Source: an uncultured Collinsella sp. (GTDB taxonomy: Bacteria; Actinomycetota; Coriobacteriia; Coriobacteriales; Coriobacteriaceae). Taken from it: a DNA stretch of 64,000 bases. The stretch lies in assembly GCA_900543275.1 (NCBI GenBank), contig UQQL01000001.1, forward strand, positions 39,674-103,673. The letters are read 5' to 3'. This document shows, in pieces, positions 4,441 to 64,000 of this stretch. Positions within the stretch are counted from its first letter, which is position 1; each line of letters begins with the position of its first letter. Made by a program: the position numbers and the translations under genes. A model generated the notes under the pieces. The model was not told the origin of the DNA. It saw nothing but the letters and a program-made list of their open reading frames with translations, and searched no databases.

Positions 4441-5232
4441 TTACTCCTCGTCGTCCTCGTCGTCCGAGAACAGGTCCAGACGGCTCACGAACAGGCCCTC
4501 CTTGCCCTCGCGCGCGGTAATGACCACGCGAGCGATGGCGAGCGAAATCTCGTAGAGCGAGAGCAGGGCGCCATACATGAGACCCAGCGTAACGGGCGAG
4601 CCGTCGGGCGTAATCACAGCCGAGCCCACAAGCAGGCCTACGTACACGTAGCGCCAGGCGCTGCGGAAGGCCGCATAGGACACGATGTGAAAGACGGACA
4701 GATAGAAGATGATGAGCGGCAGCTCAAACGCCACACCAAAGCCGATCATAAAGAGCAGCTCCATGTTGACGTAGTTCTCCAGGTCGGGCAGCGCCGTAGC
4801 GACGGCCGAGGTCTCGCCGATGAGCCACTCAAAGCCCGCCGGGATGATGATGAAATAGCAGAAGATGGCACCCAGGAAGAACAGCACCGTCGAGGCGAGC
4901 ACCGTGGGCACGACCCACTTGCGCTCGTTGGGGCGCAGCGCCGGCAGGAAAAATGCCAGGATCTGCCAGATGATCATGGGCGTGCACATGACCACGGCCA
5001 TCTTGATGGCCAGCGAGAAGCGCAGGCCAAAGCCGCCGAGTGTGGTGGTGATGTAGAACTTACCGTCCGGCACAAACGAGCGGATGGGGTCTTCCAGGAT
5101 ATCGAGCACCACGGGCGTGGCAAAGTACAGCACGATGGCGGCGGCAAACACCGACACGACCACGATGGTCAGGCGGCGACGGAGCTCTCCCAAGTGATCG
5201 AAGAGCGGCATTCGCGCGGGTCCGATAGGCAT
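4441..5232 (-). CDS. tatC: twin-arginine translocase subunit TatC
   Basis: MPLFDHLGELRRRL signature and six predicted TM helices. The start overlaps the tatA stop (TAATG). Confidence 0.9.
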   Translation of the reverse strand: MPIGPARMPLFDHLGELRRRLTIVVVSVFAAAIVLYFATPVVLDILEDPIRSFVPDGKFYITTTLGGFGLRFSLAIKMAVVMCTPMIIWQILAFFLPALRPNERKWVVPTVLASTVLFFLGAIFCYFIIIPAGFEWLIGETSAVATALPDLENYVNMELLFMIGFGVAFELPLIIFYLSVFHIVSYAAFRSAWRYVYVGLLVGSAVITPDGSPVTLGLMYGALLSLYEISLAIARVVITAREGKEGLFVSRLDLFSDDEDDEE

Positions 5233-5819
5233 TACTCATCGCCTCCCTTCGAGGCGTCGGCGGCAGTGGCTTCGTCCTCGGCCTCGAGCTCGCGAGCGAG
5301 CTGGTCGACGACAGCCTTGCGCTTGCGGGGACGACGGGCGTAGAGGTCAGCCGTCGTGGGCTCTGCCGGCTCGGGCTCGGGCTCTGCAGCAGGCTCGGGC
5401 TCGACGGCAGGCTCGGCGGCAGCGGCAGGCTCGGCCTCGGCACCCTCGGCCTCGGACTCCTCAGCAGCACCCTCGCCCTCGGCGGCAGCCTCGCTCGCGG
5501 CCTTCTCGGCAGCAAGGCGGGCACGACGCTCGGCAAAGGTCTCCTTCTTGGCGGGCGCTACCGTCTCGGCGGCATCCTCGTCCGCATCGGAATCGTCATC
5601 GACGGCAGCCTTCTTGGGCTTGACCGGAGCCGAAGCGGCCTCGCTTACCGGATCGATGATCTCGGACTGGACAACCGCCGTCATCTTTTCCTGCGTCTCG
5701 CGGAACTGACGGATGGCACGGCCGATCGTACGGCCCATCTGCGGGAGCTTATCCGGGCCAAACAGCAAAAAGCCGAAGACCACGATGATTGCCAGCTCAC
5801 CTTCTCCAATACCAAACAC
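5232..5819 (-). CDS. tatA: Sec-independent translocase TatA/TatB family protein with a long Ala/Glu-rich tail
   Basis: FGIGEGELAIIVVFGFLLFGPDKLP TatA signature. Probable GTG start at 5819, 5 nt after GGAGG. The track's upstream Met extension is unlikely to be real. Confidence 0.75.
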   Translation of the reverse strand: MFGIGEGELAIIVVFGFLLFGPDKLPQMGRTIGRAIRQFRETQEKMTAVVQSEIIDPVSEAASAPVKPKKAAVDDDSDADEDAAETVAPAKKETFAERRARLAAEKAASEAAAEGEGAAEESEAEGAEAEPAAAAEPAVEPEPAAEPEPEPAEPTTADLYARRPRKRKAVVDQLARELEAEDEATAADASKGGDE

Positions 5820-18054: not shown

Positions 18055-20958
18055 TTAGGCATTCAGCTTGACGATCGGTGCAAAGCCCTTCATTAGCTTT
18101 TTGGTCTGGCCGGTCTTTTCGAACTGAACCTCGATCATGTCTCCAACGACCGAGATCACAGTGCCCGTGCCAAAGGTCTTGTGACTCACGGTATCGCCCG
18201 CGGCAAAGTCCTGCGATGCGCTGGCGCGATCGACCTTGCGCTCCACCGTCGGGGACACCTTAGATGACGGCTTTTTGGCTCGCGGCGCGCCCGACCCAAA
18301 GGTCGAGGCAACGCGGCCGGCATCGGGCGAGACCCCACGATGGCGCTCGGTACCATAGGTGCTGCCACCAAAGAAATCGTCGAAGCTCGACCCGCCGCGC
18401 GAACCGGAACCGCCGGTCGAGCGCGTATGCGAGCCAAACACCTTGCCGCCATACATGTCCGAGCCCATACCCGAGCCAAAGGTGCCGTGTCGGTCGCCAC
18501 GCTTCTCCCAACCCGTGCCCTCAAAACCGGCAGAACCGATACCGCTAAACTCGATGTCCTCAAACGGAATCTCGTTGAGGAAGCGCGAGCGCGGGTTGGC
18601 AGAGGTCGAGCCGTAGGTGCGGCGCGTAGCGGCGTAAGTCAAGAACAGGCGCTTGCGAGCACGCGTGATGGCGACGTAGGCCAAGCGACGCTCCTCCTCG
18701 AGCTTGCCCGGATCGTCACTACCGCCAAAGTCGTGCACGTGCGGGAAGATGCCTTCCTCCATGCCGGCCACGAACACCGCGGGGAACTCCAAGCCCTTGG
18801 CGGAGTGAATGGTCATCATGGTGATGGCATGCGTCTCGCCGGCCAGAGAATCCAAGTCGGAGCGCAGAGCCAGCCACTCCATGAGTGCAGGCAACGCCTT
18901 ACAGGTGAGCGGGCCGTAGGTGCGCTCGATCTCATCGGCATGCACGGCACCGGCGGGCAGCTCTGTCGGCGCGGCATACGCGTTGCCCGCGATGGCGGCG
19001 GCCAGAGCATCTTGCGGAGAAAGCGCCGGGGCGGCCAAACTATCGAGCGGATTGGAGCCCGCGGCGTCACGGGCGCCGACAAGCGCCTCAAACGAAGACG
19101 CGGGCGCAGACGGGCCAGGCTCGGGCGCAGGTGCGCTCACCACAACGGGCTCGGGCTCAGCGTCGGCAGGCACATCGGCAACACCGGCCGCACGCAGCTC
19201 TTCCAAGCTCTCGAGCGTGCCTTCGATATCCTCGTGCGTCTCCTCAAATTCCGCCGCAACGCCCAGGAATTCCTGGATGTTCTCGGCGCGGCTCTCGGAC
19301 TCCATGGTGCCCTCGGCGCGGAAGGCCTGCAGCAGGCCCGTCTTGTCGACAATCATCTCGACGACGTCCTTGAGCTCGCCGTCCATGCGCCGGCCCTCGC
19401 GCACCAGCGCCACAAAGCTCGACAGGCCGTTGCGCACCTTGGCGCTAAACATGCCCGTCTCGGCCGTCGCAATCTCACAGGCTTGGAAGAACGAGCAGCG
19501 GTTGTCGCGTGCCAGCTGCTCAATCTTTTGAATCGAGGTGGAGCCGATGCCGCGGCGCGGCGTGTTGATGACGCGCTTGACGCTCATCTCGTCGGCCGGG
19601 TTCACGATCATCTTGAGGTAGGCCATGACGTCGCGGATCTCGGCACGGTCGAAGAATCGCGTGCCGCCGACGACCTTGTAGGGCACGCCCGCGCGCAGGA
19701 ACATATCTTCGAGGATACGCGACTGGGCGTTGGTGCGATAGAACACGGCGATGTCGTCGTAGCTCGTGCCCTTGGAGTGCAGCTTTTCGATCTCGCCGGC
19801 AATCCAGCGGCCCTCGTCGCGCTCATCGCTCGCTTGGAAGGCCTGAATCTTCTCGCCATCGCCCTCGGCCGTAAACAGACGCTTGTCCTTGCGCTGCGAG
19901 TTGTGGCGAACAACGGCGTTGGCGGCGCTCAGGATGTGACCCGTGGAGCGATAGTTCTGCTCCAGCTTTACGGTCTTGCAGTTTTTAAAGTCCTTCTCAA
20001 AGTCCAGGATGTTGGTGATGTCGGCGCCGCGCCAGCTATAAATGGACTGGTCATCGTCGCCTACGACCATGAGGTTTTGGTACTTGGCGGCCAGCAGGTT
20101 GGCGATCTCGTACTGGACGTGGTTGGTGTCCTGATACTCGTCGACGCTAATGTAGCGGAAGCGCTCCTGGTACTTGTCGAGCACCTCGGGGCGGGTGCGC
20201 AGCAGCTCGAGCGTGCGCACGAGCAGGTCATCGAAGTCCATCGCGTTGGCGGCGCGCAGGCGACGCTCCAGCTCCATATAGACCTGTGCGGCCTTTTTAT
20301 CGTTGGGGCTATCGGCAGATTTGAGCATGTCCTCGGGCCCGATCATGGCGTTTTTGGCCGAACTGATCTTGCTGCGGATCATGTTGATGGGGAACTGCTT
20401 TTGCTCGATACCGAGTGCCTGCATAATGTCGCGCACCATGCGCTTGGAATCGTCGTCATCGTAGATGGTGAACTGACCGGTATAGCCCAGCAGGTCGGCG
20501 TCCTCGCGCAGCATGCGCACGCACATGGCATGGAAGGTGCACACCCACATGCCACGGGTACCGCTGGGAATAAGTGCCGCCAGACGCTCGCGCATCTCGG
20601 CCGCGGCCTTGTTGGTAAACGTGATGGCAAGGATCTGCCAGGGCTTAACACCCAGGTCGCCGAGCATATGGGCGATGCGGAAGGTCAAGACGCGGGTCTT
20701 GCCCGAGCCGGCGCCGGCAAGCACCAGCAACGGGCCCTCGGTGGTCAGAACTGCCTCGCGCTGGGCGGAATTAAGGCTGTCGATGTCGACGAGCGGCTTG
20801 GCGGGCTTGGGCGCCGGCGCGGGAGCGTCGTAGATGTCGAGCGGAACGAGCTCGGGCTCCGGCGCGGCGGGGGCAGTGTATGCATCGAGCGGCACGGGTT
20901 CCGGCGCGGGCGGCACGGCCGCGGCGGTGTTCTTTTCCCAGGGCAAGGGCTGGGTCAT
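18055..20958 (-). CDS. pcrA: ATP-dependent DNA helicase PcrA/UvrD with a long low-complexity insert and a C-terminal Tudor-like domain
   Basis: Walker A AGAGSGKTRVL and SF1 motifs. A Gly/Ser/Ala-rich region of about 250 aa precedes the C-terminus. GAGGAG RBS before the MTQPLPW start. Confidence 0.9.
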   Translation of the reverse strand: MTQPLPWEKNTAAAVPPAPEPVPLDAYTAPAAPEPELVPLDIYDAPAPAPKPAKPLVDIDSLNSAQREAVLTTEGPLLVLAGAGSGKTRVLTFRIAHMLGDLGVKPWQILAITFTNKAAAEMRERLAALIPSGTRGMWVCTFHAMCVRMLREDADLLGYTGQFTIYDDDDSKRMVRDIMQALGIEQKQFPINMIRSKISSAKNAMIGPEDMLKSADSPNDKKAAQVYMELERRLRAANAMDFDDLLVRTLELLRTRPEVLDKYQERFRYISVDEYQDTNHVQYEIANLLAAKYQNLMVVGDDDQSIYSWRGADITNILDFEKDFKNCKTVKLEQNYRSTGHILSAANAVVRHNSQRKDKRLFTAEGDGEKIQAFQASDERDEGRWIAGEIEKLHSKGTSYDDIAVFYRTNAQSRILEDMFLRAGVPYKVVGGTRFFDRAEIRDVMAYLKMIVNPADEMSVKRVINTPRRGIGSTSIQKIEQLARDNRCSFFQACEIATAETGMFSAKVRNGLSSFVALVREGRRMDGELKDVVEMIVDKTGLLQAFRAEGTMESESRAENIQEFLGVAAEFEETHEDIEGTLESLEELRAAGVADVPADAEPEPVVVSAPAPEPGPSAPASSFEALVGARDAAGSNPLDSLAAPALSPQDALAAAIAGNAYAAPTELPAGAVHADEIERTYGPLTCKALPALMEWLALRSDLDSLAGETHAITMMTIHSAKGLEFPAVFVAGMEEGIFPHVHDFGGSDDPGKLEEERRLAYVAITRARKRLFLTYAATRRTYGSTSANPRSRFLNEIPFEDIEFSGIGSAGFEGTGWEKRGDRHGTFGSGMGSDMYGGKVFGSHTRSTGGSGSRGGSSFDDFFGGSTYGTERHRGVSPDAGRVASTFGSGAPRAKKPSSKVSPTVERKVDRASASQDFAAGDTVSHKTFGTGTVISVVGDMIEVQFEKTGQTKKLMKGFAPIVKLNA

Positions 20959-21176
20959 GGGCGACTCCTCATCTGACGGACGGCGCGCCTGCGGGCAGCG
21001 CCATAGTTTGAGCCGTACCAGTATACCGAGCCGCGCGGACACCGACGCAAATCACACCACGACTCCGTGCGCCACCGTCAGGCCCGCCCCAGCGGATTTG
21101 GCGCAATGGGTTCAGGTTACTTTGCACCAATCTATTGACAATCACGAAACCGCCGATGTCATGGCAGCAGCAGCGA

Positions 21177-37107: not shown

Positions 37108-37308
37108 CGATATCGAACTCCTTAGAGGGTCGTTGTTCAGATGCATGCCGCCGCGGCGGAGCATGGTGGCAGGGTAAGTGTCACATATCGTGCGGACACG
37201 TCCGAAAGCTCGCGCCAAACCGCCAATCTTAATCGTCATACGCCCAAAATACGAACGATCGATCTGTTATCCTGGCGCCAACATAGTCTTTCGAAAGGTT
37301 TGGCCGGG

Positions 37309-40185
37309 ATGACTACGCAGCAGCAGATTGATATTGAATTCGACTCGCTTGCACGCGAGAACGATTCACCCAAGCTCATCGCCAACTCGAAGGCGACCGG
37401 CGGAACATTACTATCCGTTATCAAGGAGCAGCTCTCGACCTGCAGCTCTTTTGACTTTTGCGTAGCGTTTGTTGCAGACGGTGGCCTTCAAATCTTGGTC
37501 GAAGCGTCCCAGGAGCTCAAGCAGCGTGGCATTAAGGGCAGGCTGCTGACGTCCACCTATCTCAACTTCAACTCACCCGATGCGTTTCGCAAGCTCCTGG
37601 AATACGACAACATAGAAGTTCGCGTATTCCAGGGTAATTTGCATGCTAAGGGATACATTTTTGATAAGGGCGAAACCAGCACGATAATCGTCGGCAGCTC
37701 GAACATGACGCAGACCGCCCTCACCTGCAATAAAGAATGGAACGTGCTGTACCAGACCGTTGAAAACAGCCGCTTGCTCGGAGAGCTTAGAGGTGAGTTC
37801 AATTCGCTGTGGAGTGACGCCTCGACCGTTGCGCTTTCCCAAGACTGGATTGACAAATATGCCGCATATCGATCGGCGCGTCCCCCAAAGCCCAAATCGA
37901 AACCGACGTTCCAGGCAACTGTTAGCCCAACCACGAACGATCTCGAAGAACTCAAGCCCAATAAAATGCAGCAGCGCGCCCTTGAGGCGCTCGGTGCAAT
38001 CCACCGTAAGGGCGAGACTCGCGCCCTGCTGGTCTCGGCAACCGGCACTGGCAAGACCTTCCTGTCGGCGTTCGATGTGCTCGCAACTAAACCCCGGCGC
38101 GTCCTCTTTCTTGCGCACCGCCGGCGCATTATCGACGCCTCCCGTGCAAGCTACGAACGGCTCTTAGGTAGTACCTATATGTTCGACACCTATCAAACTG
38201 GCAAGAATACAAGCGATGCTACCTGTGTGTTTGCCATGTGTTCTTCGGTCGCCAAACATCTGAGCGATTTCCGTCCCGATGAGTTCGACTACATCGTCAT
38301 CGACGAGGCCCACCGCACGGGATCTCAGGGCTACCAATCCATCATGTCGCACTTTACGCCTCGGTTTTATCTGGGCATGACCGCTACACCCAATCGCACC
38401 GACGGCTATGACGTCTTTGCCCTTTTCAATCACGTCATCGCATTCCAGATCACGCTGCAGGACGCTTTGTCCGAGGAGATGCTAGCCCCCTTCCATTATT
38501 TTGGCATTCACGATCTGGAGATTGACGATGAGACGATCGAAAATACCGCCCTGTTCGGGCGCTTAACGTCCGACGAGCGTGTGCGTCACATCACCGAGAA
38601 GATCGAAGAATATAGCGTCACCAAAAGCAGCCGCAGGGGCTTAATTTTCTGCAATCGAAACGCCGAGGCCAAAGAACTGTCGCGCAAATTCAACGCTCTC
38701 GGATATCGAACGGCTGCGATTAGCGGTCAAGATCCCGATGAAGTCCGCGATGCCGTTATCAGCCGACTTGAAGCCGGCGAGCTCGAGTATATTTTCTCGG
38801 TCGATATCATGAACGAAGGCGTCGACATCCCCTCGCTCAATCAGATCATCATGCTTCGACGCACCGACTCCGCAATCATCTTTATTCAACAGCTCGGACG
38901 AGGTTTGCGTCTGAATGATGGTAAGGAATACGCACTGGTGCTCGACTTTATTGGCAACTACCAGAGCAACTTCTTGGTGCCCATCGCGCTTTCGGGTGAC
39001 AAAACGTACAACAAAGATCGCCTGCGTCGTCTCGTCCAAGAGGGCGATTCGACGATCCCCGGATGCTCGACCGTGAGCTTCGATCGTATTTCCGAGGCAC
39101 GCATCTACAAGGCCATCGATGGCGGCGATTTCACCTCCGTCAGGTTTTTGAAAAACGAATATCTCGACTTGCGCCAGAAACTCGGCAAGATTCCCTCGCT
39201 GCTCGAATTTGATCGTAACGGCTCCATCGATCCGCTGCTTATCTTCAAGAATAGCGGCCTGGGGTCCTACCACGCATTTCTATCCAAATACGAGCCGGAC
39301 TACACGGTTCAATTTTCCTCTGATCAAACCAAGATTCTCAAATTTATTTCTCAAAAGCTCGCCGCGGGCAAGCGTTTCGAAGACCTCTATTTGCTTCAAA
39401 CGCTCGTCGAAGCCGGACACGAGGGCTACCGGCATATGCGCGAGGCTGCGCTTAGGAACTACCACACACAGCTTAAGGACAGCGCCGTTAGGTCGGCAAT
39501 CACAGTCCTTAAGGGCGACTTTGCCACTCCCAAGGATTTCGTTTCCCTGCTTATTGACGATGGATGCGGACCTCGTCTGACCGAAGCGTTTGCGACCGCT
39601 CTGCGCAACGCAGAGTTCAAGCGTCAGATTCTCGAGGTGCTGGATTTTGGCATTGCGCGTAACCGACTCGACTATGCCGAGACGTACCAAAACACAAATT
39701 TCGTTCTCAACGCCAAGTACACGTACGAAGAAGTTTGCCGCTTGATGAACTGGGAAAAGAACATCAACGGCCAAAATCTTGGCGGCTACTTCTACGACGA
39801 GAAGACCATTACATTCCCCGTGTTTATTAACTATGACAAGGCACCCGACATTAGCGAGTCCATTCAGTATGAAGACCGCTTTGTTTCGCCGAGTAAGCTA
39901 GTTGCAATCTCTAAGAACAACCGCACGCTCAACTCCCCCGAGATTCAGCGACTGCAGGCATGGCCGGGCAACGGGCTAAAGACGTATTTGTTTATGCGCA
40001 AGAACAAGGACGATAAGGGTGGCAAGGAATTTTACTTCCTAGGCGAAATGCATCCGACTGGCGAGTTCAAAGCTATTAAAACTAAGAGCGGCGACAACGC
40101 CGTCGAAATCGAATATGAACTCAATGCTCCCGTGCGCCAGGACATTTACGAGTTTATGCTCAGCGATCTGAGTGAGACAGAGTAA
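37309..40185 (+). CDS. PLD/HKD nuclease - SF2 (ResIII/DEAH) helicase - DUF3427-like C-terminal domain protein; restriction or defence-like
   Basis: A single HKD motif (HAKGYIFDKGETSTIIVGSSNMT) sits at the N-terminus. Helicase motifs I (SATGTGKT), II (VIDEAHR), III (TATPNR) and VI (QQLGRGLR) follow. The C-terminal roughly 350 aa resemble DUF3427. GC is markedly lower (about 50%) than neighbours. Start at the MTTQQQ Met. Confidence 0.85.
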   Translation: MTTQQQIDIEFDSLARENDSPKLIANSKATGGTLLSVIKEQLSTCSSFDFCVAFVADGGLQILVEASQELKQRGIKGRLLTSTYLNFNSPDAFRKLLEYDNIEVRVFQGNLHAKGYIFDKGETSTIIVGSSNMTQTALTCNKEWNVLYQTVENSRLLGELRGEFNSLWSDASTVALSQDWIDKYAAYRSARPPKPKSKPTFQATVSPTTNDLEELKPNKMQQRALEALGAIHRKGETRALLVSATGTGKTFLSAFDVLATKPRRVLFLAHRRRIIDASRASYERLLGSTYMFDTYQTGKNTSDATCVFAMCSSVAKHLSDFRPDEFDYIVIDEAHRTGSQGYQSIMSHFTPRFYLGMTATPNRTDGYDVFALFNHVIAFQITLQDALSEEMLAPFHYFGIHDLEIDDETIENTALFGRLTSDERVRHITEKIEEYSVTKSSRRGLIFCNRNAEAKELSRKFNALGYRTAAISGQDPDEVRDAVISRLEAGELEYIFSVDIMNEGVDIPSLNQIIMLRRTDSAIIFIQQLGRGLRLNDGKEYALVLDFIGNYQSNFLVPIALSGDKTYNKDRLRRLVQEGDSTIPGCSTVSFDRISEARIYKAIDGGDFTSVRFLKNEYLDLRQKLGKIPSLLEFDRNGSIDPLLIFKNSGLGSYHAFLSKYEPDYTVQFSSDQTKILKFISQKLAAGKRFEDLYLLQTLVEAGHEGYRHMREAALRNYHTQLKDSAVRSAITVLKGDFATPKDFVSLLIDDGCGPRLTEAFATALRNAEFKRQILEVLDFGIARNRLDYAETYQNTNFVLNAKYTYEEVCRLMNWEKNINGQNLGGYFYDEKTITFPVFINYDKAPDISESIQYEDRFVSPSKLVAISKNNRTLNSPEIQRLQAWPGNGLKTYLFMRKNKDDKGGKEFYFLGEMHPTGEFKAIKTKSGDNAVEIEYELNAPVRQDIYEFMLSDLSETE

Positions 40186-51400: not shown

Positions 51401-54400
51401 ATGTTCGAGAAGCGGCTCTTCTCCCTGGTTCCGCAGGCAACGCCCTACATTATGGCAAGCGTCCTGTTTAAGTGGATCGCGCTCATGGCAAACATCACGG
51501 TGATGTGGATGCTTGCGCGCATCTTGGGCGGCATCGTCACGAACGGTCTTTCCGCCGCGCTCGCCGTCGATGCCCTCGCACAGGCGGCCTTGCCGCTCGC
51601 CGCCGCCATCATCGTGCGCGCCGCCTCCATCTACCTGGCCCAACGCGCCGGCGACAAGGCCGCGTTCGAGGCCGTCCGCCGCGTGCGCTCGCTCGTCTAC
51701 GACAAGCTCACCGCACTCGGCCCCTCCTACACCGAAACCGTCCCCACCGCCGAGGCCGTCCAGACCAGCGTCGAGGGCGCCACGCAACTCCAGGTGTACT
51801 TTGGCGGTTACCTGCCGCAGCTCTTCTTTGCCGGTTTGGCACCCATCACGCTGTTTGTACTGCTCGTGGGCCAAGCGGGTCTTCCCGCCGCGCTACTGCT
51901 CGCCTGCGTTCCGGTCATCCCCGTCTCCATCATGATGGTCATGCGCAACGCCAAAAAGATCGGTGCCGAGTACTGGGGCAGCTATGTCGATCTTGGCGGC
52001 ATGTTCCTGGAGGCCGTGCAGGGTCTCACCACCCTTAAGGTCTACCAGGCCGATCGCAGCTGGCACGAGCGCATCAACGCCGAGTCCGAGCGTTTCCGCA
52101 CAGCGACCATGCGCCTGCTGGTGATGCAGCTGCGCTCCATTTGCGTTATGGACCTGGTCGTCTATATGGGCGCCGCGCTCGGCATTATCGTAGCCACGCT
52201 GCAGCTCGCCACGGGCAAGATTGGCTTTGAGGCTGCCTTCCTCATCGTCTTTCTGTCGCAGGAGTTCTTTTTGCCCATGCGCCGCCTGGGATCGCTGTTC
52301 CACACGGCCATGAACGGCATGGCCGCCTCGCGCCGCATGTTTGGCATTTTGGATACGCCCGAGTCCGAGCGCGGCGATGTTGAGCTTGACGGTCGCGGCG
52401 ATATCGAGCTCACGGACGTGAGCTATGCCTACGGCGACCGCACGGTGCTGGACAGCGCCAGCGCGACCATTGCGCACGGCTCGCTCGTGGCACTCGTGGG
52501 CGAAAGCGGCGGCGGCAAATCTACGCTCGCGGGGATTATCGCGGGCCGCAAGGGTGCCTACCGCGGCAGCGTGCGCATTGGCGGCGTCGAGCTGCGCGAT
52601 GCCACGGCCACCTCACTCATGCGCGCCGTCACGCTGGTGCCCACCAACGGCTACCTGTTTGCCGGCACCCTGCGCGACAACCTGCTGCTCGCCCAGCCCA
52701 GCGCCACCGATACCGAGCTTTTGCGCGCACTCGACCGCACGCGCGTGGCGGCCTTTGTGCAGGCCAACGGCGGGCTCGACATGGTGATTAACGAGGGCGG
52801 CACCAACCTTTCGGGTGGCCAGCGCCAACGCGTGTGCATGGCACGCGCCCTGCTGCACGACTCGCCCATCTATGTGTTTGACGAGGCGACGAGCAATGTG
52901 GACGCTGCGAGCGAAGCCGCGATCGGCGAGGTCATCGCATCGCTTGCCGGCGAGCACACTGTAATTGTGGTGGCACACCGCCTGTCGACGATCGTGGACG
53001 CCGACCAGATTCTGGTGCTGGAACGCGGTCGCATTGTCGAGCACGGGACTCACGGCGAGCTCTTGGCAACCGCGGGCGCCTATGCGCGCATGTGGAACAG
53101 CCAGGAGCAGCTCTCGGCATATGCGTATGCGGAGGATGATGCCGAGGATGCCGGCGCGGTTGAGGCTGTTGACGGCAGCACCGCCCGTGCCGATGGCCTC
53201 AACGGTGCCGGCTCGTCTTCCGCTGCCGCGGCGCCTGACTCCGGCCGCGCCCGTCGCTCGGCGCCGTCCATCATGTGGCGCATGATGGGGCTCGTCCGAC
53301 CGCTTGCCGGCTGGCTTGTGCTAGCCGTCGCGCTGGGCAGCATTGGTATGCTCACTGCCGCGTTCGTGCCGGCCTTTGGCGCCCTTGGCCTTATGGCCGC
53401 GCTGGGCCGCTACGCCTTGGGGCTTGGTCTGATCGCAGCATGCGCGGCCTGTGCCGCCTGCGGCATCGCACGCGGGCCGCTCCACTACGGCGAGCAGCTC
53501 TGCAACCACTACATCGCGTTTCGCCTGCTCGCGCACATCCGCGACTTGGTGTTTGGCGCCCTGCGCCAGCTCGCCCCCGCCAAGCTCGAGGGCCGCGGCA
53601 AGGGCGATCTCGTGAGCCTGGTCACCTCGGATATCGAGCTGCTCGAGGTCTTCTACGCGCACACCATCTCGCCCATTGCCATCGCTCTGGTCTGCACCGT
53701 TGTGTTTGAGGGCTTTTTGCTGGCTGTGAGCCCCGAGCTCGCGGGCATCGCGCTCGTGGCCTACGCGGTCCTGGGCGTGCTACTGCCCCTGACCTCGGCC
53801 AAGGCATGCGGCACCACTGGCCGCCAGAGCCGCGAGGGCGCCGGTAAGCTGGGTGCCTTTGTGCTCGACAGTCTACGCGGCGCGTCCGAGACTATCCAGT
53901 TTGCCGGTGGCGCCGATCGCAGCCGTGCCCTGGGCAAGCTGACCGAGCAAGTCGGCGCCGTGGACGCGCGCCTCAAGCGCCGCCAGGCGGCCAGCGAGGC
54001 CGTAGCCGATGCGCTTATTCTTGCGGCCAATCTGGTGATGCTCGGGCGAGCGCTGCAGCTGGTGGCTGCGGGAACGATCGATTTTGCCGCAGCGTTTGTC
54101 GCCGTCTTTACCTTTGTGTCGTCGTTTGGCTCGGTGATGGCCGTGAGCCGCCTGGGCGCCTCACTGCAGGAGACGCTCGCCTCGGGCGCACGCGTGCTCG
54201 ATTTGCTCGACGAGCAGCCCCAGTGCGCCGAGGTCGCCGATGGACAGGACGTTGAGTTTGCCGGCGCCGCAGCCGAGCATGTGAGCTTTAGCTATGCGGA
54301 CGGCGTGGACGCGGGTGGTGCCGACGCCACAGAGCAGGCCGCGAATGACCCCGCTTCGAGTCTCATCCTCGACGACGTGACCTGCACCTTTGCGCCCGGC

Positions 54401-54967
54401 ACCATGACCTGCATCATGGGGCGCTCGGGCTCGGGCAAGTCGACGCTGCTTAAGCTGCTCATGCGTTTTTGGGACCCCGCAGCCGGCACCATCACGGTGA
54501 GCGGCGTCGATGCCCGCCACATCAACACGGCGAGCCTGCGCAGCCACGAGGCCTATATGACCCAGGACACACATCTGTTCTGCGGCACCGTACGCGAGAA
54601 TCTGCTGGTCGCGCGCGCCAACGCCACCAATGCCGAGCTGCTCGACGCTTGCCGCTCCGCCTCACTCACCACGCTCATCGACCGCCTGCCGCAGGGTCTC
54701 GACACCCCGGTTGCCGAGCTAGGCGACTCGCTCTCGGGAGGCGAGCGCCAGCGCATCGGCCTTGCGCGTATCTTCCTCAACGACGCACCCTTCATCTTGC
54801 TCGACGAGCCCACCAGCGCACTCGACGCTCTCAACGAGGCAGCCGTAATGCAGGCCGTTGACGAGCTCAAGCGCCGCGGCAAGACCATCGTGCTCGTAAG
54901 CCATCGCGCCAGCACCTGCGCCTTTGCCGATTTCTCGCTTTCGGTCGAGCACGGGAGGCTGAGCTAG
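51401..54967 (+). CDS. fused two-half ABC exporter (CydD-like plus CydC-like; thiol-reductant exporter family)
   Basis: Two TMD-NBD units. Each has Walker A (GESGGGKST, GRSGSGKST), signature LSGGQ/LSGGE and Walker B. AGGAGG RBS. Confidence 0.85.
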   Translation: MFEKRLFSLVPQATPYIMASVLFKWIALMANITVMWMLARILGGIVTNGLSAALAVDALAQAALPLAAAIIVRAASIYLAQRAGDKAAFEAVRRVRSLVYDKLTALGPSYTETVPTAEAVQTSVEGATQLQVYFGGYLPQLFFAGLAPITLFVLLVGQAGLPAALLLACVPVIPVSIMMVMRNAKKIGAEYWGSYVDLGGMFLEAVQGLTTLKVYQADRSWHERINAESERFRTATMRLLVMQLRSICVMDLVVYMGAALGIIVATLQLATGKIGFEAAFLIVFLSQEFFLPMRRLGSLFHTAMNGMAASRRMFGILDTPESERGDVELDGRGDIELTDVSYAYGDRTVLDSASATIAHGSLVALVGESGGGKSTLAGIIAGRKGAYRGSVRIGGVELRDATATSLMRAVTLVPTNGYLFAGTLRDNLLLAQPSATDTELLRALDRTRVAAFVQANGGLDMVINEGGTNLSGGQRQRVCMARALLHDSPIYVFDEATSNVDAASEAAIGEVIASLAGEHTVIVVAHRLSTIVDADQILVLERGRIVEHGTHGELLATAGAYARMWNSQEQLSAYAYAEDDAEDAGAVEAVDGSTARADGLNGAGSSSAAAAPDSGRARRSAPSIMWRMMGLVRPLAGWLVLAVALGSIGMLTAAFVPAFGALGLMAALGRYALGLGLIAACAACAACGIARGPLHYGEQLCNHYIAFRLLAHIRDLVFGALRQLAPAKLEGRGKGDLVSLVTSDIELLEVFYAHTISPIAIALVCTVVFEGFLLAVSPELAGIALVAYAVLGVLLPLTSAKACGTTGRQSREGAGKLGAFVLDSLRGASETIQFAGGADRSRALGKLTEQVGAVDARLKRRQAASEAVADALILAANLVMLGRALQLVAAGTIDFAAAFVAVFTFVSSFGSVMAVSRLGASLQETLASGARVLDLLDEQPQCAEVADGQDVEFAGAAAEHVSFSYADGVDAGGADATEQAANDPASSLILDDVTCTFAPGTMTCIMGRSGSGKSTLLKLLMRFWDPAAGTITVSGVDARHINTASLRSHEAYMTQDTHLFCGTVRENLLVARANATNAELLDACRSASLTTLIDRLPQGLDTPVAELGDSLSGGERQRIGLARIFLNDAPFILLDEPTSALDALNEAAVMQAVDELKRRGKTIVLVSHRASTCAFADFSLSVEHGRLS

Positions 54968-55387
54968 ATGGCGCGCACCGCCGACACACCGGAGCTGGCA
55001 CGCAAACGTGAGCGCGAGGCCCAAATGGTGTCGCAGATGATTGCGCTGTGGTGCCGCGGGCATCATGGCGGCGGGCATGCGATCGAGCAGGCTGGCGACG
55101 ATGAGCCCGCGCGCGTGAAGCTCGGCCTTCGGACCATTACGCTCTGCCCCGAATGCGCCGAGCTGCAGAAATACGCCATCGCGCGCATTGAGCACTGCCC
55201 GCACATGGGCACCAAGACATTTTGCTCGGCCTGTCCTTCGCATTGTTACCGGCCTGCCATGCGCGAGAAGATACGCGAGGTCATGCGCTGGTCGGGACCG
55301 CGTATGATCCGCTATCGCCCCATCACCGCCGTGCGGCACGCGATGGTAACGGTGCAGGCCAAACGCGTGGCGGCACGAAGCAAGTAG
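54968..55387 (+). CDS. nitrous-oxide-stimulated-promoter (YgbA-like) family Cys-rich protein
   Basis: LWCRGHHGG...LCPECAEL...CPHMGTKTFCSACPSHCYRP...MRWSGPRM pattern. ATG directly abuts the ABC exporter's stop. Confidence 0.65.
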   Translation: MARTADTPELARKREREAQMVSQMIALWCRGHHGGGHAIEQAGDDEPARVKLGLRTITLCPECAELQKYAIARIEHCPHMGTKTFCSACPSHCYRPAMREKIREVMRWSGPRMIRYRPITAVRHAMVTVQAKRVAARSK

Positions 55388-55506
55388 TCGCCGGCGCCGG
55401 CACGCGCCGCCTGCCCTTTCCAGTCGGTTTCGACTTGCAGCGTTCCCGCCGCGCCGAGGCTGCGCCATTACAATGGAACGGATTCGCCAAATGCAAAGGA
55501 GCCGCC

Positions 55507-56418
55507 ATGTCCGCTTGCCCGCTGGTCGATTGTCACACCCACACCTCGTTTTCGGATGGCCATGCCTCGTTTGAGGACAACGTCCGCGCTGCTGCCGCCG
55601 CCGGCTGCCGCGTTATGGTCTCGACTGACCACCTCACCCTGCCCGCCAGCATGGACGCCAACTGCGAAGTGCAGGTTGTCGAGGGCGACCTGACGGCGCA
55701 TCGCCTGGCGTTTGAGGACGCCCGCAGGCTTGCCGCGCAAATCGCGCCGGAGCTTGAGCTTATCTATGGCTTTGAATGCGACTGGTACGAAGGTTGCGAG
55801 CCTTTGGTTGAGGGCTGGTCCGCGGGTGCCATAGTGCGCTTGGGCAGTGTGCACTGGATTGGCGACCCGGGCGATATCATGGCCGGCGCTGCGGGTACGG
55901 CGGGAACGGAGGGCGTCGCTCGCCCTGATACGCCCGATTCGCTCTGCGGCTGGATCGACGACGACACCAACCTGCATGTTTGGGAAAACCTGGGCGTGCG
56001 CGGCGTGTGGGAGCGCTACGTCGACGACTGGTGCCGTGCTTGCGAAAGCTCACTCAACTTTGATGTAATGGCCCATCCCGACCTGGTCATGCGCTTTTCG
56101 AAGGAAGGCTTTGCGCCCGACTTTGACCCCGCGCCGTTTTGGCAGCAGATGGCCGAGTGCGCCCATGACACGGGCCGGCGCGTTGAGGTCTCGACCGCCG
56201 CACCGCGCAAGGGCCTCGATGACTACTATCCCGCGACCGGATTGCTGCGTTGCTTCGCCCACGCCGAGGTGCCAATCACCTTTGGCTCGGACGCACACCG
56301 CGCCTGTGACATCTGTTGGAATATCCGCGAAGCGCAGGCCCACGCCTACGACTGCGGTTATCGAACCTTCGACATCCCCCACCCCACCGGAGAATGGGAG
56401 TCCACGCCCCTCGCCTAA
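55507..56418 (+). CDS. hisK: PHP-family histidinol-phosphatase (HisJ/HisK type)
   Basis: PHP motifs (VDCHTHTSFSDGH, MVSTDH, FGSDAH). Adjacent to the his operon. AAAGGAG RBS. Confidence 0.7.
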   Translation: MSACPLVDCHTHTSFSDGHASFEDNVRAAAAAGCRVMVSTDHLTLPASMDANCEVQVVEGDLTAHRLAFEDARRLAAQIAPELELIYGFECDWYEGCEPLVEGWSAGAIVRLGSVHWIGDPGDIMAGAAGTAGTEGVARPDTPDSLCGWIDDDTNLHVWENLGVRGVWERYVDDWCRACESSLNFDVMAHPDLVMRFSKEGFAPDFDPAPFWQQMAECAHDTGRRVEVSTAAPRKGLDDYYPATGLLRCFAHAEVPITFGSDAHRACDICWNIREAQAHAYDCGYRTFDIPHPTGEWESTPLA

Positions 56419-56421
56419 GAT

Positions 56422-56450
56422 TAGTCGTTGGGGACGTTCTTAAACGACTA
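56422..56450 (+). repeat. family A hairpin motif copy 5 (tagtcgtt-GGGGACGTTCTTAA-acgacta)
   Basis: Same loop as copy 2. The stem carries compensatory changes (cat/atg to cgt/acg). Overlaps the hisE stop codon. Confidence 0.6.
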
Positions 56451-56765
56451 GTGGCGGCGGGCATTGAGTTCGCCGGCCAGTTCGTCGAGGGTGATGCCGT
56501 AGCGTTCGAGTGTCACGAGCAAGTGATAGATCAGGTCGCCGGCCTCGTAGCGAATGTGATCGTGGTCGTTATCCTTGCAAGCCATGATAACCTCGCTCGC
56601 CTCCTCGGCAAGCTTCTTGAGCAGCTCGTCCTCGACATCGGTCAGCAGACGGGCGGTATAGCTCTCCTGCGGCGACGCATCGCGACGGCCGTGAATCACC
56701 TCAGCAAGGCCGGTCAAGGTCTCGCCGATATTTCCCGGCTGCACGTTAGCGGTTCTGACTCCCAT
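56448..56765 (-). CDS. hisE: phosphoribosyl-ATP pyrophosphatase
   Basis: MazG-like HisE (LAEEASEVIMAC...EAGDLIYHLLV). Confidence 0.9.
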   Translation of the reverse strand: MGVRTANVQPGNIGETLTGLAEVIHGRRDASPQESYTARLLTDVEDELLKKLAEEASEVIMACKDNDHDHIRYEAGDLIYHLLVTLERYGITLDELAGELNARRH

Positions 56766-56780
56766 GGTTATTTCCTCTCG

Positions 56781-57008
56781 TTACTGCAGCGTAAAGTAGG
56801 TACCGGCCTCATCGAACCGAGGCTTTGCACCCTTCTTCCCAAAGAACCCATCGATGACGGCATGGGCCTCATCGAGCCTTTCTTTCTCGGTCTCGAGCCA
56901 AAGCGACTGTGCCCCGCAGGCATCGGTCAGATGCACGCGGCACGGCACGCCCGCACGGAGGAGCTCGGCGTTACAATCGGCGACTTCGAACGGCGTCACG
57001 ACCCTCAT
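56781..57008 (-). CDS. small hypothetical protein (75 aa, possibly DUF2007-like), translationally coupled to hisI
   Basis: ATGA overlap with the hisI stop. GGGGGAG lies 4 nt upstream. A beta-alpha-beta-like pattern. Confidence 0.5.
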
Positions 57009-57349
57009 CGCGCTCCCCCTTCCACGCGCTTAAAGAAGCAGGTACGGTTGCCGGTGTGGCAGGCCGGACCCGGCGAGTCGACCTTGACCAGCAGCGTATC
57101 GCTATCGCAGTCGGCCCAGAGTTCCTTGACCTCCTGCATATTGCCGCTCGTCGCGCCCTTGTTCCAGAGCTCTTGGCGGCTGCGGCTCCAAAACCACGTG
57201 GTGCCGGTCTTGAGCGTCAGCCCCACCGATTCCTCATTCATCCAAGCAACCATAAGCACCTCACCGGTGTCATACTGCTGAACCACACAGGGAATCAGCC
57301 CGCGGGCGTCGTATTTAAGATCAGCAGCTTCTACTACCTCAGTCATCAT
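57005..57349 (-). CDS. hisI: phosphoribosyl-AMP cyclohydrolase
   Basis: [24 protein letters not shown] and CHTG zinc motif. The ATG at 57349/57346 after GGGAG is preferred over the TTG in the track. Confidence 0.9.
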
Positions 57350-57395
57350 TTCTCCCAAGTAATAACAGTAAGCCCCACAGGTCGGCGAGGGTTGT

Positions 57396-60389: not shown

Positions 60390-61505
60390 CTACATCTCCT
60401 CCTTCACCAGCGCGGCAAACGCGGCCAGCACCTCATCGTTTTCCTGCGGGGTGCCCACGGTAATGCGCAGACAATCCGCGAGCCCCGGCGCGTAGCTAAA
60501 GTCGCGCACCAGAATCGAATACTCGTCGCGCAGACGCTCGCGCACGCGCGTGGCATGCGGCGTGCGCGCGAGCACAAAATTCGCCGCGCTCGGCCATACC
60601 TCCACGGGCAGACCCTCGGCAGCCATTGCGTGCAGGGCACACAGTTCGCGCTTGCGCTCGGATGCGACCTGCGCCACCACGGGCGCGTACGCATCGCGGG
60701 CACGCACGCAGGCAAGCGCGGCGGCCTGGCTCAGCACATTGACCGAATAGATCTGGCGAATCGCCGCGAACACATCGATGACCTCGGGCGCCGCGATCAC
60801 ATAGCCCAGACGCGTGCCGGCGGCGCCAAACGCCTTGGACAGCGTATGCAAAATCACCAGGTTGGGATGCTCGGCGATAAGGCCTTGCGCCGTGGTTGCC
60901 GTGCCAAACGAATCGTCGGCAAACTCAACGTAAGCCTCGTCGACCATCACCATGCCGGGACACGCATCGCACAGGGCCGCGACAAAGTCGAGCGGCGCCA
61001 CATCGCCCGTGGGATTGTTGGGCGAGGTCACGATGGCGAGATCGCACTCGGGAGCCGCCGCAAGCACCGCCGCATGGTCGAGCTCAAAGGTCACCGGGTC
61101 GCGCCACACGTCGCGCACCTCGGTCTGGCACAGCGACGCAAAGAACGCGTACTCGCTAAAGCACGGCGGGCAGTTGAGCAGGGTCCGCCCCGCGCCGCCA
61201 AACGCCAGCAGGTAGTTATAGAGCAGCTCATCGCCGCCGTTTCCCGCGCAAATATTCTCACGCGCCACGCCATGCCAGGCAGCGAGCTCATCGCGCAGGT
61301 CGTTGGACATGGGATCGGGATAACGGTTGAGCGGCGTGGCAGCCAAGGCCGCATCAACCGCCTCGCGCACGCCAGCAGGTACGGGATAGGTGTTCTCGTT
61401 GGCCGAAAGATTGATGCGCGTGGGCGTAAAGTTGGGATCGTAGGGCTCGATACCGGCCAAGTAGGGCTGGACGAGCTCCTTCATGCGCGGCGTGAGTTCG
61501 GCCAT
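60390..61505 (-). CDS. hisC: histidinol-phosphate aminotransferase
   Basis: Class II aminotransferase with LSKAFGAAGTRLGY lysine region. GGGGAGG RBS before MAELTPRMKE. Confidence 0.9.
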   Translation of the reverse strand: MAELTPRMKELVQPYLAGIEPYDPNFTPTRINLSANENTYPVPAGVREAVDAALAATPLNRYPDPMSNDLRDELAAWHGVARENICAGNGGDELLYNYLLAFGGAGRTLLNCPPCFSEYAFFASLCQTEVRDVWRDPVTFELDHAAVLAAAPECDLAIVTSPNNPTGDVAPLDFVAALCDACPGMVMVDEAYVEFADDSFGTATTAQGLIAEHPNLVILHTLSKAFGAAGTRLGYVIAAPEVIDVFAAIRQIYSVNVLSQAAALACVRARDAYAPVVAQVASERKRELCALHAMAAEGLPVEVWPSAANFVLARTPHATRVRERLRDEYSILVRDFSYAPGLADCLRITVGTPQENDEVLAAFAALVKEEM

Positions 61506-61506
61506 G

Positions 61507-62943
61507 TTAGGCCTCCCCGCCGGTCGCGCCAGCGGCACCGCCCGCAGCCGCCGCCAGGTCCACGCCCTCGGAGACCGTCGCGGTCGCATCGCCCGGCCAG
61601 GCAACCTTGGTCAGGTCGGCCGCGGCCAGCGACGCGGCACTTACGGCATCCTCGCCCTGCTCCAGCACGCGGCGGCGCAGTGCGGCCGAAAGTGCGTGCG
61701 CCCATAGACCCTCGGCCTCGGCCAGACGCTGCGTAGCAGGAGCGTCGGAGAGCAGACCTTCGGGCGTATAGCAAATGACGCTCGAGCGCTTAACGAACTC
61801 TTCGACCGAAAGCGGGTTGGAGAACATGGCCGTGCCGCCGGTCGGCAGCGTGTGGTTGGGACCGGCGACGTAATCGCCGAGTGGCTCGGAGCTCCAGGCA
61901 CCCACAAAGATGGCACCGGCGTTGCGAATGCCGCCGAGCAGGCCCATCGCGTCCTTGCAGTGCAGCTCAAGGTGCTCAGGCGCCACGGTGTTCACGGCCT
62001 CGACGGCGGCAGCCATATCGGCGGCGACCACGATGGTGCCCTCGTTATCGAGCGAGGCGCGCGTGATCTCGGCGCGCGGGGACTGCGCCACCAGAATGTC
62101 GATACCCGCCTCGACCTCGCGCGCAAACTGCTCGTCGCAGGTCACCAGATAGCAGGCAGCCAGCGGATCGTGCTCGGCCTGCGCCATCAAGTCGGCCGCG
62201 ACCACCATGGGCTTGGCCGTGGCATCGGCCAACACGCAGACCTCGGAGGGGCCAGCGACCATGTCGATGCCCACGTCGCCCGAGACAATCTGCTTGGCAG
62301 CGGCAACAAAAGCGTTGCCCGGACCGGTGATTTTATCGACGCGCGGAATGGTCTCGGTACCGTACGCCAGCGCGGCCACGGCCTGAGCGCCGCCCACCAT
62401 ATAGATCTCATCCACGCCGCCGAGCTTGGCTGCCGCGAGCGTGTAGGGGCTGATCAGGCCGTCCTTTTGCGGCGGGGTCACCATGACCACGCGCTCAACG
62501 CCGGCGACCTTGGCGGGAATGGCGTTCATAAGCACGGTGGAAGGGTACTGTGCACGACCGCCCGGCACATAGATGCCGGCCGCAGCAAGCGGGGTCACCT
62601 TAACGCCGAGCATCGTGCCGTCCGGGCGCGTGGTAAACCAGCTCTGCTCGACCTCGCGCTGGTGGAACTCGCGAATCTGGCGTGCAGCCTTTTCGAGCGC
62701 CGCGACAAAAGCGGGATCGAGGCCTTCGAGCGCGGCATCGATCTGCTCTTGCGGCAGACGGAAGCTCTGCAGTTCAACGCCGTCAAAACGCTGACAGTAA
62801 TCGCGCACCGCGGCATCGCCGTTGGCACGCACGTTGGCCACGATATCGCGGGCGGCGTCAACAATTTTTTGCGGTAGCACGCCCTTGCGGTTGAGCTGAT
62901 TGGTAACGAGACGCTCGCCGGGAGCAAGTTTGATGGTCTTCAT
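61507..62943 (-). CDS. hisD: histidinol dehydrogenase
   Basis: HisD signatures, 478 aa. Confidence 0.95.
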
Positions 62944-63048: not shown

Positions 63049-64000
63049 CTATTGTGCCGAGCCCGCGACGGGCTCAAAATGCTTGTCCTTCACGGCCGCC
63101 ACCAAGCGATCTGCCAGATTGCGCACGCGCGGATCCAAGCGAGCGGCACCCGGGTTGACAAAGAAGCGGGCCGTGCAGTCCATAATGCGGCCGGTGATGA
63201 CCAGGTCGTTGTCGCGCAGGGTGGCACCCGTGGCGGTAATGTCCACGATGCGATCGGTCATGCCGACAATGGGGCCCAGCTCGATGTTGCCGTGCAGCGA
63301 GACGATATCGGCGTTCACGCCGCGCTCGGCATACCAGGCACTCGCGATGCGCGGGTACTTGGTTGCCACGCGAAGCGAACCGCGGCGGGCATAGTTTCGC
63401 TCGGCCTGCCCGGCGCGCCATGCGGGCTCCGCCTCGATAAAGGTGCACAGGCCATAGCCCAGGTCGACCAGCTGCAGCAAGTTGAGGTCGGCCTCGATGA
63501 GCGAGTCCCAGCCGCAGATGCCACAGTCGGCACCGCCGCAGCCCACAAAGGCAGGCGCATCGCTGGGGCGCACGATGACAAACTCGATATCGCCGACCGT
63601 GCCCTCGCCAGCACGCGTGTCGCGACCGCGCACAATCAGGTGACGGCCGGGATCACGCAGCTCAGAGACGTCCAGGCCCGCGGCCTCGAGCACGTCGAGC
63701 GTATCGGCCTTAAGCGAGCCCTTGGGCACGGCGATGCGCAGCGGACCCTCGGCACCACGGCCCGCGGCGTGATCGCCATCGGAAGCGGCGTCCTCGGCCG
63801 AGGTACGCGCGGCCTCCAGGCGCTCGAGCGAAAAGGCAAAGCCCGCCGCCGGCACCTCGATGCCATCGCCGAACGCGCCGGTAAAGATGGAGTCATAGCG
63901 ACCGCCCGAGCCCACCGGATCGGGCAAGCCGCCGGCATAGGCCTTAAAGACCAAGCCCGTGTAGTAATCAAAAGAGTTCATGATAGAAAAGTCGAACGAC
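63049..64000 (-). CDS. hisG: HisZ (C-terminal part, gene continues beyond the window) fused in-frame to short-form ATP phosphoribosyltransferase HisG
   Basis: Reading into the window, the frame gives a HisZ class-II-like motif (SFDYYTGLVFKAY...GGRYDSIF...GFAFSLERL). An Ala/Asp/Gly linker follows, then full short-form HisG (LRIAVPKGSL...). There is no stop codon between them, and the frame stays open to the window edge. Confidence 0.7.
   Translation of the reverse strand, partial: SFDFSIMNSFDYYTGLVFKAYAGGLPDPVGSGGRYDSIFTGAFGDGIEVPAAGFAFSLERLEAARTSAEDAASDGDHAAGRGAEGPLRIAVPKGSLKADTLDVLEAAGLDVSELRDPGRHLIVRGRDTRAGEGTVGDIEFVIVRPSDAPAFVGCGGADCGICGWDSLIEADLNLLQLVDLGYGLCTFIEAEPAWRAGQAERNYARRGSLRVATKYPRIASAWYAERGVNADIVSLHGNIELGPIVGMTDRIVDITATGATLRDNDLVITGRIMDCTARFFVNPGAARLDPRVRNLADRLVAAVKDKHFEPVAGSAQ

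Follow-up and report, generated by a model that had tools for sequence, protein, structure and literature searches.

A single-frame hisZ-hisG gene at the head of the histidine operon of Collinsella

The window analysed here, a stretch of 64,000 nucleotides from an uncultured Collinsella sp., ends within the first gene of a histidine biosynthesis operon that is read from the minus strand. Translation of positions 63999 to 63052 on that strand gives one open frame of 316 codons, with no internal stop, that terminates at a TAG; the frame is still open at the window edge, and the rest of HisZ lies beyond it. A previous sequence-only reading had proposed a single in-frame hisZ-hisG gene at this position, and the proposal is borne out by the 316-codon frame together with Pfam and NCBIfam domain matches. 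The three HisZ motifs that it had listed (DYYTGLVFKAY, GGRYDSIF and GFAFSLERL) are all found in the translation, the 25-residue linker that it had described comes to 22 residues with the boundaries used here (63807-63742), and the GAGGG with a CTG or GTG that it had placed near 63290 is actually found at 63750-63746, with the CTG at 63741-63739. An internal start near 63290 was rejected, as that position falls within HisG domain II. The features of the fused gene and of its operon are as follows.

63808..63999, minus strand: HisZ (HisRS-paralogue) regulatory domain, C-terminal 64 residues (Pfam tRNA-synt_His, TIGR00443)
63969-63955, minus strand: DYYTG motif of the HisZ part
63906-63892, minus strand: GGRYD motif of the HisZ part
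63843-63817, minus strand: motif 3, GFAFSLERL, of the HisZ part
63742..63807, minus strand: linker RTSAEDAASDGDHAAGRGAEGP, 22 residues (6 Ala, 4 Gly, 3 Asp), in frame with both domains
63739..63750, minus strand: GAGGG (63750-63746), 4 nt, then CTG (63741-63739), the sole candidate internal start at the junction
63052..63741, minus strand: short-form HisG (HisGS) catalytic domain, complete, 230 residues, from LRIAVPKG (TIGR00070, Pfam HisG)
63630-63598, minus strand: lineage-specific Arg/Gly loop RGRDTRAGEGT of HisG
63243-63217, minus strand: PRPP-loop motif DITATGATL of HisG
63049..63051, minus strand: TAG stop codon of the fused gene
61507..62943, minus strand: hisD, the next gene of the operon, 105 nt downstream of hisZG (Pfam Histidinol_dh, E 1e-166)
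57005-57358, minus strand: hisI, 117 aa, from the ORF translation only
56448-56765, minus strand: hisE, 105 aa, from the ORF translation only

Profile searches find both families on the 316-residue fragment. Its first residues match the end of the Pfam tRNA-synt_His profile (fragment residues 1-61, profile positions 251-308 of 308, E 1e-13) and of TIGR00443, the HisZ model (residues 1-65, profile positions 251-312 of 314). Pfam HisG matches residues 144-299 (E 3e-39), PF01634 scoring 134.9 bits against a cutoff of 25.5, and the hisG model TIGR00070 covers residues 87-280 (162.4 bits against a cutoff of 75.75); the HisG domain ends about 17 residues past the Pfam HisG match. The best PDB sequence matches of this half are short-form chains, for example 2vd2, 1ve4, 5m8h_E and 1z7m_E. 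That the HisG part is a complete short form, as had been suggested from the letters alone, is upheld by the match to positions 1-182 of 183 in TIGR00070 and by a profile search of the fragment and of the full-length protein described below, in which the HisG_C domain had no match at E<=0.01. The pattern D-x-x-x-T-G-x-T-L is taken here to be the PRPP-binding loop motif and the N-terminal P-K-G a HisG motif, and the corresponding columns, DITATGATL and LRIAVPKG, show little or no variation in 90-92-sequence alignments of fused proteins. DYYTG and GGRYD in the other half are presumably histidine-pocket motifs.

The part of HisZ that lies outside the window is supplied by a C. aerofaciens isolate contig (L007), which is 100% identical over the 316 window residues and adds the N-terminal ~255 residues, for a full protein of 571 aa. 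The gene on this contig begins with an ATG placed 8 nt after AGGAGG, a good Shine-Dalgarno sequence.

Downstream of hisD, the ORFs of hisC, hisB, hisH, hisA, hisF, hisI and hisE follow down to 56448. The HisD protein has 478 aa; beyond residue 423, where the Histidinol_dh profile ends, come some 50 residues rich in Ala and Gly, whose coding sequence runs into the 5' end of the longest hisC ORF (60390-61604), and hisC itself probably begins further downstream. hisI and hisE are two ORFs with about 240 nt between them. Many bacteria have the two fused as hisIE, so that within one operon a commonly fused pair is split and a commonly split pair, hisZ and hisG, is fused. On the opposite strand and facing the operon, the ORF at 55222-56418 (plus strand) may encode a histidinol phosphatase, to judge from its PHP-type motif, CPLVDCHTHTSFSDGH. 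In Slackia and in another Coriobacteriia contig the fused gene likewise stands first in the hisD-C-B-H-A operon, and hisZ followed by hisG at the operon head is the usual Firmicutes order (PMC9413887). An Rfam search of L007 (4800-5400, with the 170-nt leader at 5066-5235) gave no match to a T-box or other leader RNA at E<=1, which fits the control of Coriobacteriales his operons by the HisR repressor reported in PMC9413887.

Elsewhere in the window, the 1188-aa product of the ORF at 51401-54967 (plus strand) has two ABC_membrane and two ABC_tran stretches and looks like both halves of an ABC exporter in one polypeptide. In the 995-aa PcrA/UvrD helicase (18055-21042, minus strand) the match to the 350-position UvrD_C profile stretches over 447 residues, with about 145 more between it and the C-terminal tudor domain, a Pfam layout consistent with the long linkers previously remarked on in PcrA. 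A 1014-aa protein at 37141-40185 (plus strand) combines a PLD-like nuclease, ResIII/helicase domains and DUF3427.

The conservation of the junction was assessed within Collinsella from a one-genome-per-species scan, which returned 80 loci with at least 99% protein identity to the window fragment, all of them in Collinsella (C. aerofaciens and close relatives) or in assemblies named as Coriobacteriaceae or uncultured bacterium. The junction is in frame in 80 of these 80 independent assemblies, and 73 have an identical stop-to-stop frame of 598 codons. Over the 132 nt of the junction there are 58 DNA haplotypes and only 8 protein variants. Within the 22 codons of the linker itself, 20 of the 26 polymorphic sites fall at the third position of a codon, the variant codons comprise 22 synonymous and 7 non-synonymous ones, and indels number zero. 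The haplotypes and the excess at third positions indicate that the linker is translated and under selection as coding sequence, in one frame with both domains; judged by these substitutions, the linker is under purifying selection in Collinsella. At greater distances, orthologues with both Pfam domains and 58-91% identity, mostly of 525-553 aa, are found in Slackia, Atopobiaceae, Parolsenella and other Coriobacteriales. In an alignment of the Coriobacteriia proteins the HisZ end (GFAxSLERL) and the HisG start ((R)PLRIAVPKG) are conserved, and the linker between them differs in length and sequence from genus to genus.

One reading of such a frame is that a single ORF yields two products, with HisG made also or mainly by internal initiation, at the CTG at 63741 or at a GTG at 63729. 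The window offers it a GAGGG placed 4 nt before the CTG of the first HisG residue, and TTG stands at that codon in 2 of 7 orthologues. A separate start for HisG was one of the two reservations attached to the sequence-only reading, and a comparison of the junction DNA of six diverged orthologues and L007 favours the fusion, as the first HisG codon changes by genus (of the seven, four have CTG, two TTG and one ATC) and no conserved Shine-Dalgarno sequence lies upstream of it at these seven loci; nor do they share any other conserved in-frame ATG, GTG or TTG near the junction. The purine-rich GAGGG of the window encodes Glu-Gly, and a conserved Pro directly precedes the first HisG residue in the alignment, where the ancestral initiator Met would sit. 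Starting at the GTG at 63729 would remove the first beta-strand (LRIA) of the domain, and CTG at a spacing of 4 nt makes a very weak start codon in bacteria. With neither start codon nor Shine-Dalgarno sequence conserved at this point, HisG is unlikely to be translated on its own; the GAGGG/CTG pair, compared across these loci, is judged non-functional, and initiation within the frame is on the whole very improbable.

The fusion of the two domains in one chain was considered in structural terms, with AlphaFold2 monomer models of two orthologues rather than of the window protein, built on the 90-92-sequence alignments of fused proteins. The first, P0006 (91% identical; pLDDT 91.0, pTM 0.90), is 27 residues short in HisG domain I when compared with the window protein, and for this reason the prediction was repeated with the intact P0017 (74% identical; pLDDT 93.9, pTM 0.92), with the same outcome. 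Both models are compact two-domain chains, and pTM values of 0.90 and 0.92 for a chain of two domains imply that the HisG domain has a defined position relative to the HisZ domain. Superposition of the model's HisZ half on HisZ chains of L. lactis gives a TM score of 0.85-0.88 and an rmsd of ~3 A; a comparison with the PDB by sequence and by structure returned no chain that has both domains.

The residues missing from P0006 fall at the Arg/Gly loop. P0006, P0007 and P0008 (91% identity, 544-546 aa) are all without 25-27 residues there, including the conserved GRHLIV strand, which raises the question of whether the HisG domain is intact in these three. Relatives of this type are present in NCBI, ENA and Logan assemblies. 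The loop RGRDTRAGEGT itself (63598-63630, minus strand) is absent from Atopobiaceae and Bacillota orthologues.

A flexible connection between two folded domains could also be a place where the chain is cut, that is, the protein might be translated whole and then cleaved by a protease in the linker to give separate HisZ and HisG subunits. The reduced linker pLDDT in the models could be read in this way, most clearly in P0006, where the linker block has a mean of 60, as could the variation of the linker sequence by genus; in the P0017 model, several loops of the HisZ domain dip as low as the linker or lower. Against cleavage, the linkers lack a conserved cleavage motif and the Collinsella linker is under selection as described above. 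Moreover, the distance from HisZ motif 3 to the N-terminal motif of HisG ranges across lineages from 18 to ~40 residues, with Collinsella near the long end; the shortest natural linkers, in some lineages, leave only 18-22 residues from motif 3 to the HisG start. We know of no precedent for protease cutting of such a fusion, and processing of this kind is highly improbable.

The nature of the N-terminal half can be judged from the full-length L007 protein, in which TIGR00443 matches end to end (residues 9-320, profile 1-312 of 314) and the hisG model TIGR00070 follows at 342-535. PF13393 (tRNA-synt_His) covers positions 1-308 of 308 with 217 bits, corresponding to a complete HisRS-type catalytic core. 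The HisZ half scores 244.4 bits with TIGR00443, below the curated cutoff of 271.65, so that by the NCBI threshold it is a divergent HisZ-type domain and no strict equivalog. This shortfall, together with the retention of HisRS-like motifs, is what could be said for a working histidyl-tRNA synthetase fused to HisG in place of a HisZ regulator. Yet the hisS model TIGR00442 reaches only 149.5 bits on the same half, which ends at the boundary of the catalytic core, and a Pfam search found no anticodon-binding domain in the L007 fused protein. The best PDB sequence match is the HisZ 3od1, the structural match is to L. lactis HisZ, and the gene stands at the head of the his operon, the usual position of hisZ. 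There is very little probability, then, that this half charges tRNA, and it is treated here as a HisZ-type domain.

An exhaustive search of 50%-identity cluster representatives, which reaches past the Coriobacteriia, retrieved full-length matches in a single stretch of 530-600 residues down to 28% identity, and of the 148 best representatives in its list 75 have both domains. Cluster names place fused proteins in Atopobiaceae and, among the distant clusters, in one MAG each of Actinomycetes and Lactobacillaceae and in several of Bacillota. Searching from a distant member added well over a hundred more fused proteins, with Anaerovoracaceae, Clostridia, Gallicola and Oscillospiraceae among the names, and many fused Bacillota proteins stand at about 30-45% identity. 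On these sequence matches, the hisZ-hisG fusion is common in gut Coriobacteriia and in many Firmicutes. To call the architecture unusual, as the sequence-only reading had done, was therefore an overstatement, given that about half of the best cluster representatives are fused, that the architecture is annotated publicly, and that PMC9413887 mentions such fusions. Relatives with a stop codon at the junction, which that reading had named as the evidence that would count against a fused gene, were found neither in the 80 Collinsella assemblies nor in diverged Coriobacteriia or Bacillota. The idea of a sequencing or assembly artefact, in which this assembly has lost a true stop or frameshift that sets hisZ apart from hisG, has in its favour that P0040, P0149 and P0160 carry frameshift-like junk near the junction, so that artefacts of this sort exist in some assemblies, but it is scarcely credible and is already refuted by the comparative sequence data, namely the frame kept in every Collinsella assembly across 58 distinct junction haplotypes and the same fusion in diverged genera and in another phylum.

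How often the two genes were joined is a separate matter. In a neighbour-joining tree of HisZ domains, fused (46) and stand-alone (34) entries are interspersed and 16 Fitch changes are needed, on a tree that has long branches and is poorly resolved and in which at least two of the 'stand-alone' entries, P0149 and P0166, are frameshifted fragments of fused genes. By HisZ-domain score, several stand-alone HisZ proteins of high GC content are nearer to the Coriobacteriia HisZ domain than fused Bacillota ones are. This mixing in the tree and these scores hint at more than one fusion (or fission) event.

Taken together, the data make it very probable, on sequence grounds, that the window holds part of a real hisZG fusion gene, which opens the his operon of Collinsella and encodes one polypeptide of ~571 residues. 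Its predicted layout would be an N-terminal HisZ regulatory domain (a HisRS paralogue lacking the anticodon-binding domain), a short flexible linker and a C-terminal HisGS, the last being the putative ATP phosphoribosyltransferase (EC 2.4.2.17), the first enzyme of histidine synthesis. In the characterised short-form enzymes, two HisGS dimers enclose a HisZ tetramer; HisZ increases kcat, and histidine-bound HisZ transmits inhibition (PMC10795190, PMC9437257). By analogy, the product is likely to be a single-chain ATP phosphoribosyltransferase with an octamer-like assembly, in which four fused chains would come together as in the HisZ4-HisGS4 hetero-octamer, with a HisZ tetramer at the core and two flanking HisG dimers. 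The retention of DYYTG, GGRYD and the HisG PRPP loop and the compact, high-confidence monomer models lend this reading indirect support. The HisZ domain would activate HisG and pass on feedback inhibition by histidine, and the tether would fix a 1:1 stoichiometry and keep the association permanent. The gene probably arose when the stop codon of hisZ was lost in an adjacent hisZ-hisG pair, the former initiator position of HisG being occupied now by Pro.

The fusion as such is already known, as public C. aerofaciens genomes contain the gene and NCBI and JGI have annotated its relatives. NCBI names relatives either 'ATP phosphoribosyltransferase' only or 'regulatory subunit' only, which may well reflect the score of the HisZ half under its cutoff; annotators should record it as a single gene with a bifunctional hisZG product. 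In the literature, PMC9413887 names hisZ-hisG as one of the his gene pairs that 'have undergone fusions'. That single passing sentence is what a search for work on the fusion returned, with no biochemical or structural study found; Fani 2007 (PMC1963479), which PMC9413887 cites for fusions, does not mention hisZ, and none of the enzymology and structure papers on ATP-PRT that were consulted discusses the fused form. The architecture is thus known at the database level and apparently uncharacterised by experiment. It is otherwise an ordinary conserved gene fusion in a well-understood pathway. For enzymology, a HisZ-HisG that is naturally one chain and comes from a bacterium abundant in the human gut could give a convenient 1:1 system for the study of allostery and histidine feedback.

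A more far-reaching proposal is that single-chain HisZ-HisGS enzymes form a third ATP-PRT class, beside the HisGL hexamers and the HisZ/HisGS hetero-octamers, that they had several origins in Coriobacteriia and Bacillota lineages, and that the tether alters allostery. We regard this as possible but rather doubtful. Fused HisZ domains end at the core boundary, and many stand-alone HisZ proteins carry 70-100 further residues; under the proposal, HisG would occupy the place of the C-terminal domain of stand-alone HisZ. If true, it would imply permanent activation, no free pool of low-activity HisGS and possibly a different oligomer.

The closest known counterparts of the Collinsella protein are the HisZ4-HisGS4 enzymes of L. 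lactis (1Z7M/1Z7N), T. maritima (1USY), P. arcticus (5M8H) and A. baumannii (8OY0), which belong to the same two families and act at the same step. The HisG half matches their HisGS chains (E 1e-23 to 1e-26) and the HisZ half their HisZ chains, but in Collinsella the subunits form one polypeptide with a 22-residue linker. Compared with many stand-alone HisZ proteins, the fused HisZ domain also lacks the extra C-terminal region of ~70-100 residues. The long-form HisGL enzymes (E. coli 1H3D, M. tuberculosis 1NH7), typical of other Actinomycetota, share the catalytic fold and likewise have their regulator attached covalently; there, however, it is the small C-terminal HisG_C, whereas the Collinsella regulator is an N-terminal HisRS paralogue of ~320 residues in a protein that has no HisG_C. 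Among his genes more generally, hisIE, hisNB and the eukaryotic HIS4/HIS7 are likewise recurrent fusions of adjacent or coupled genes (PMC1963479, PMC9413887). Those fusions join consecutive catalytic activities, while hisZG joins a catalytic subunit to its allosteric regulator.
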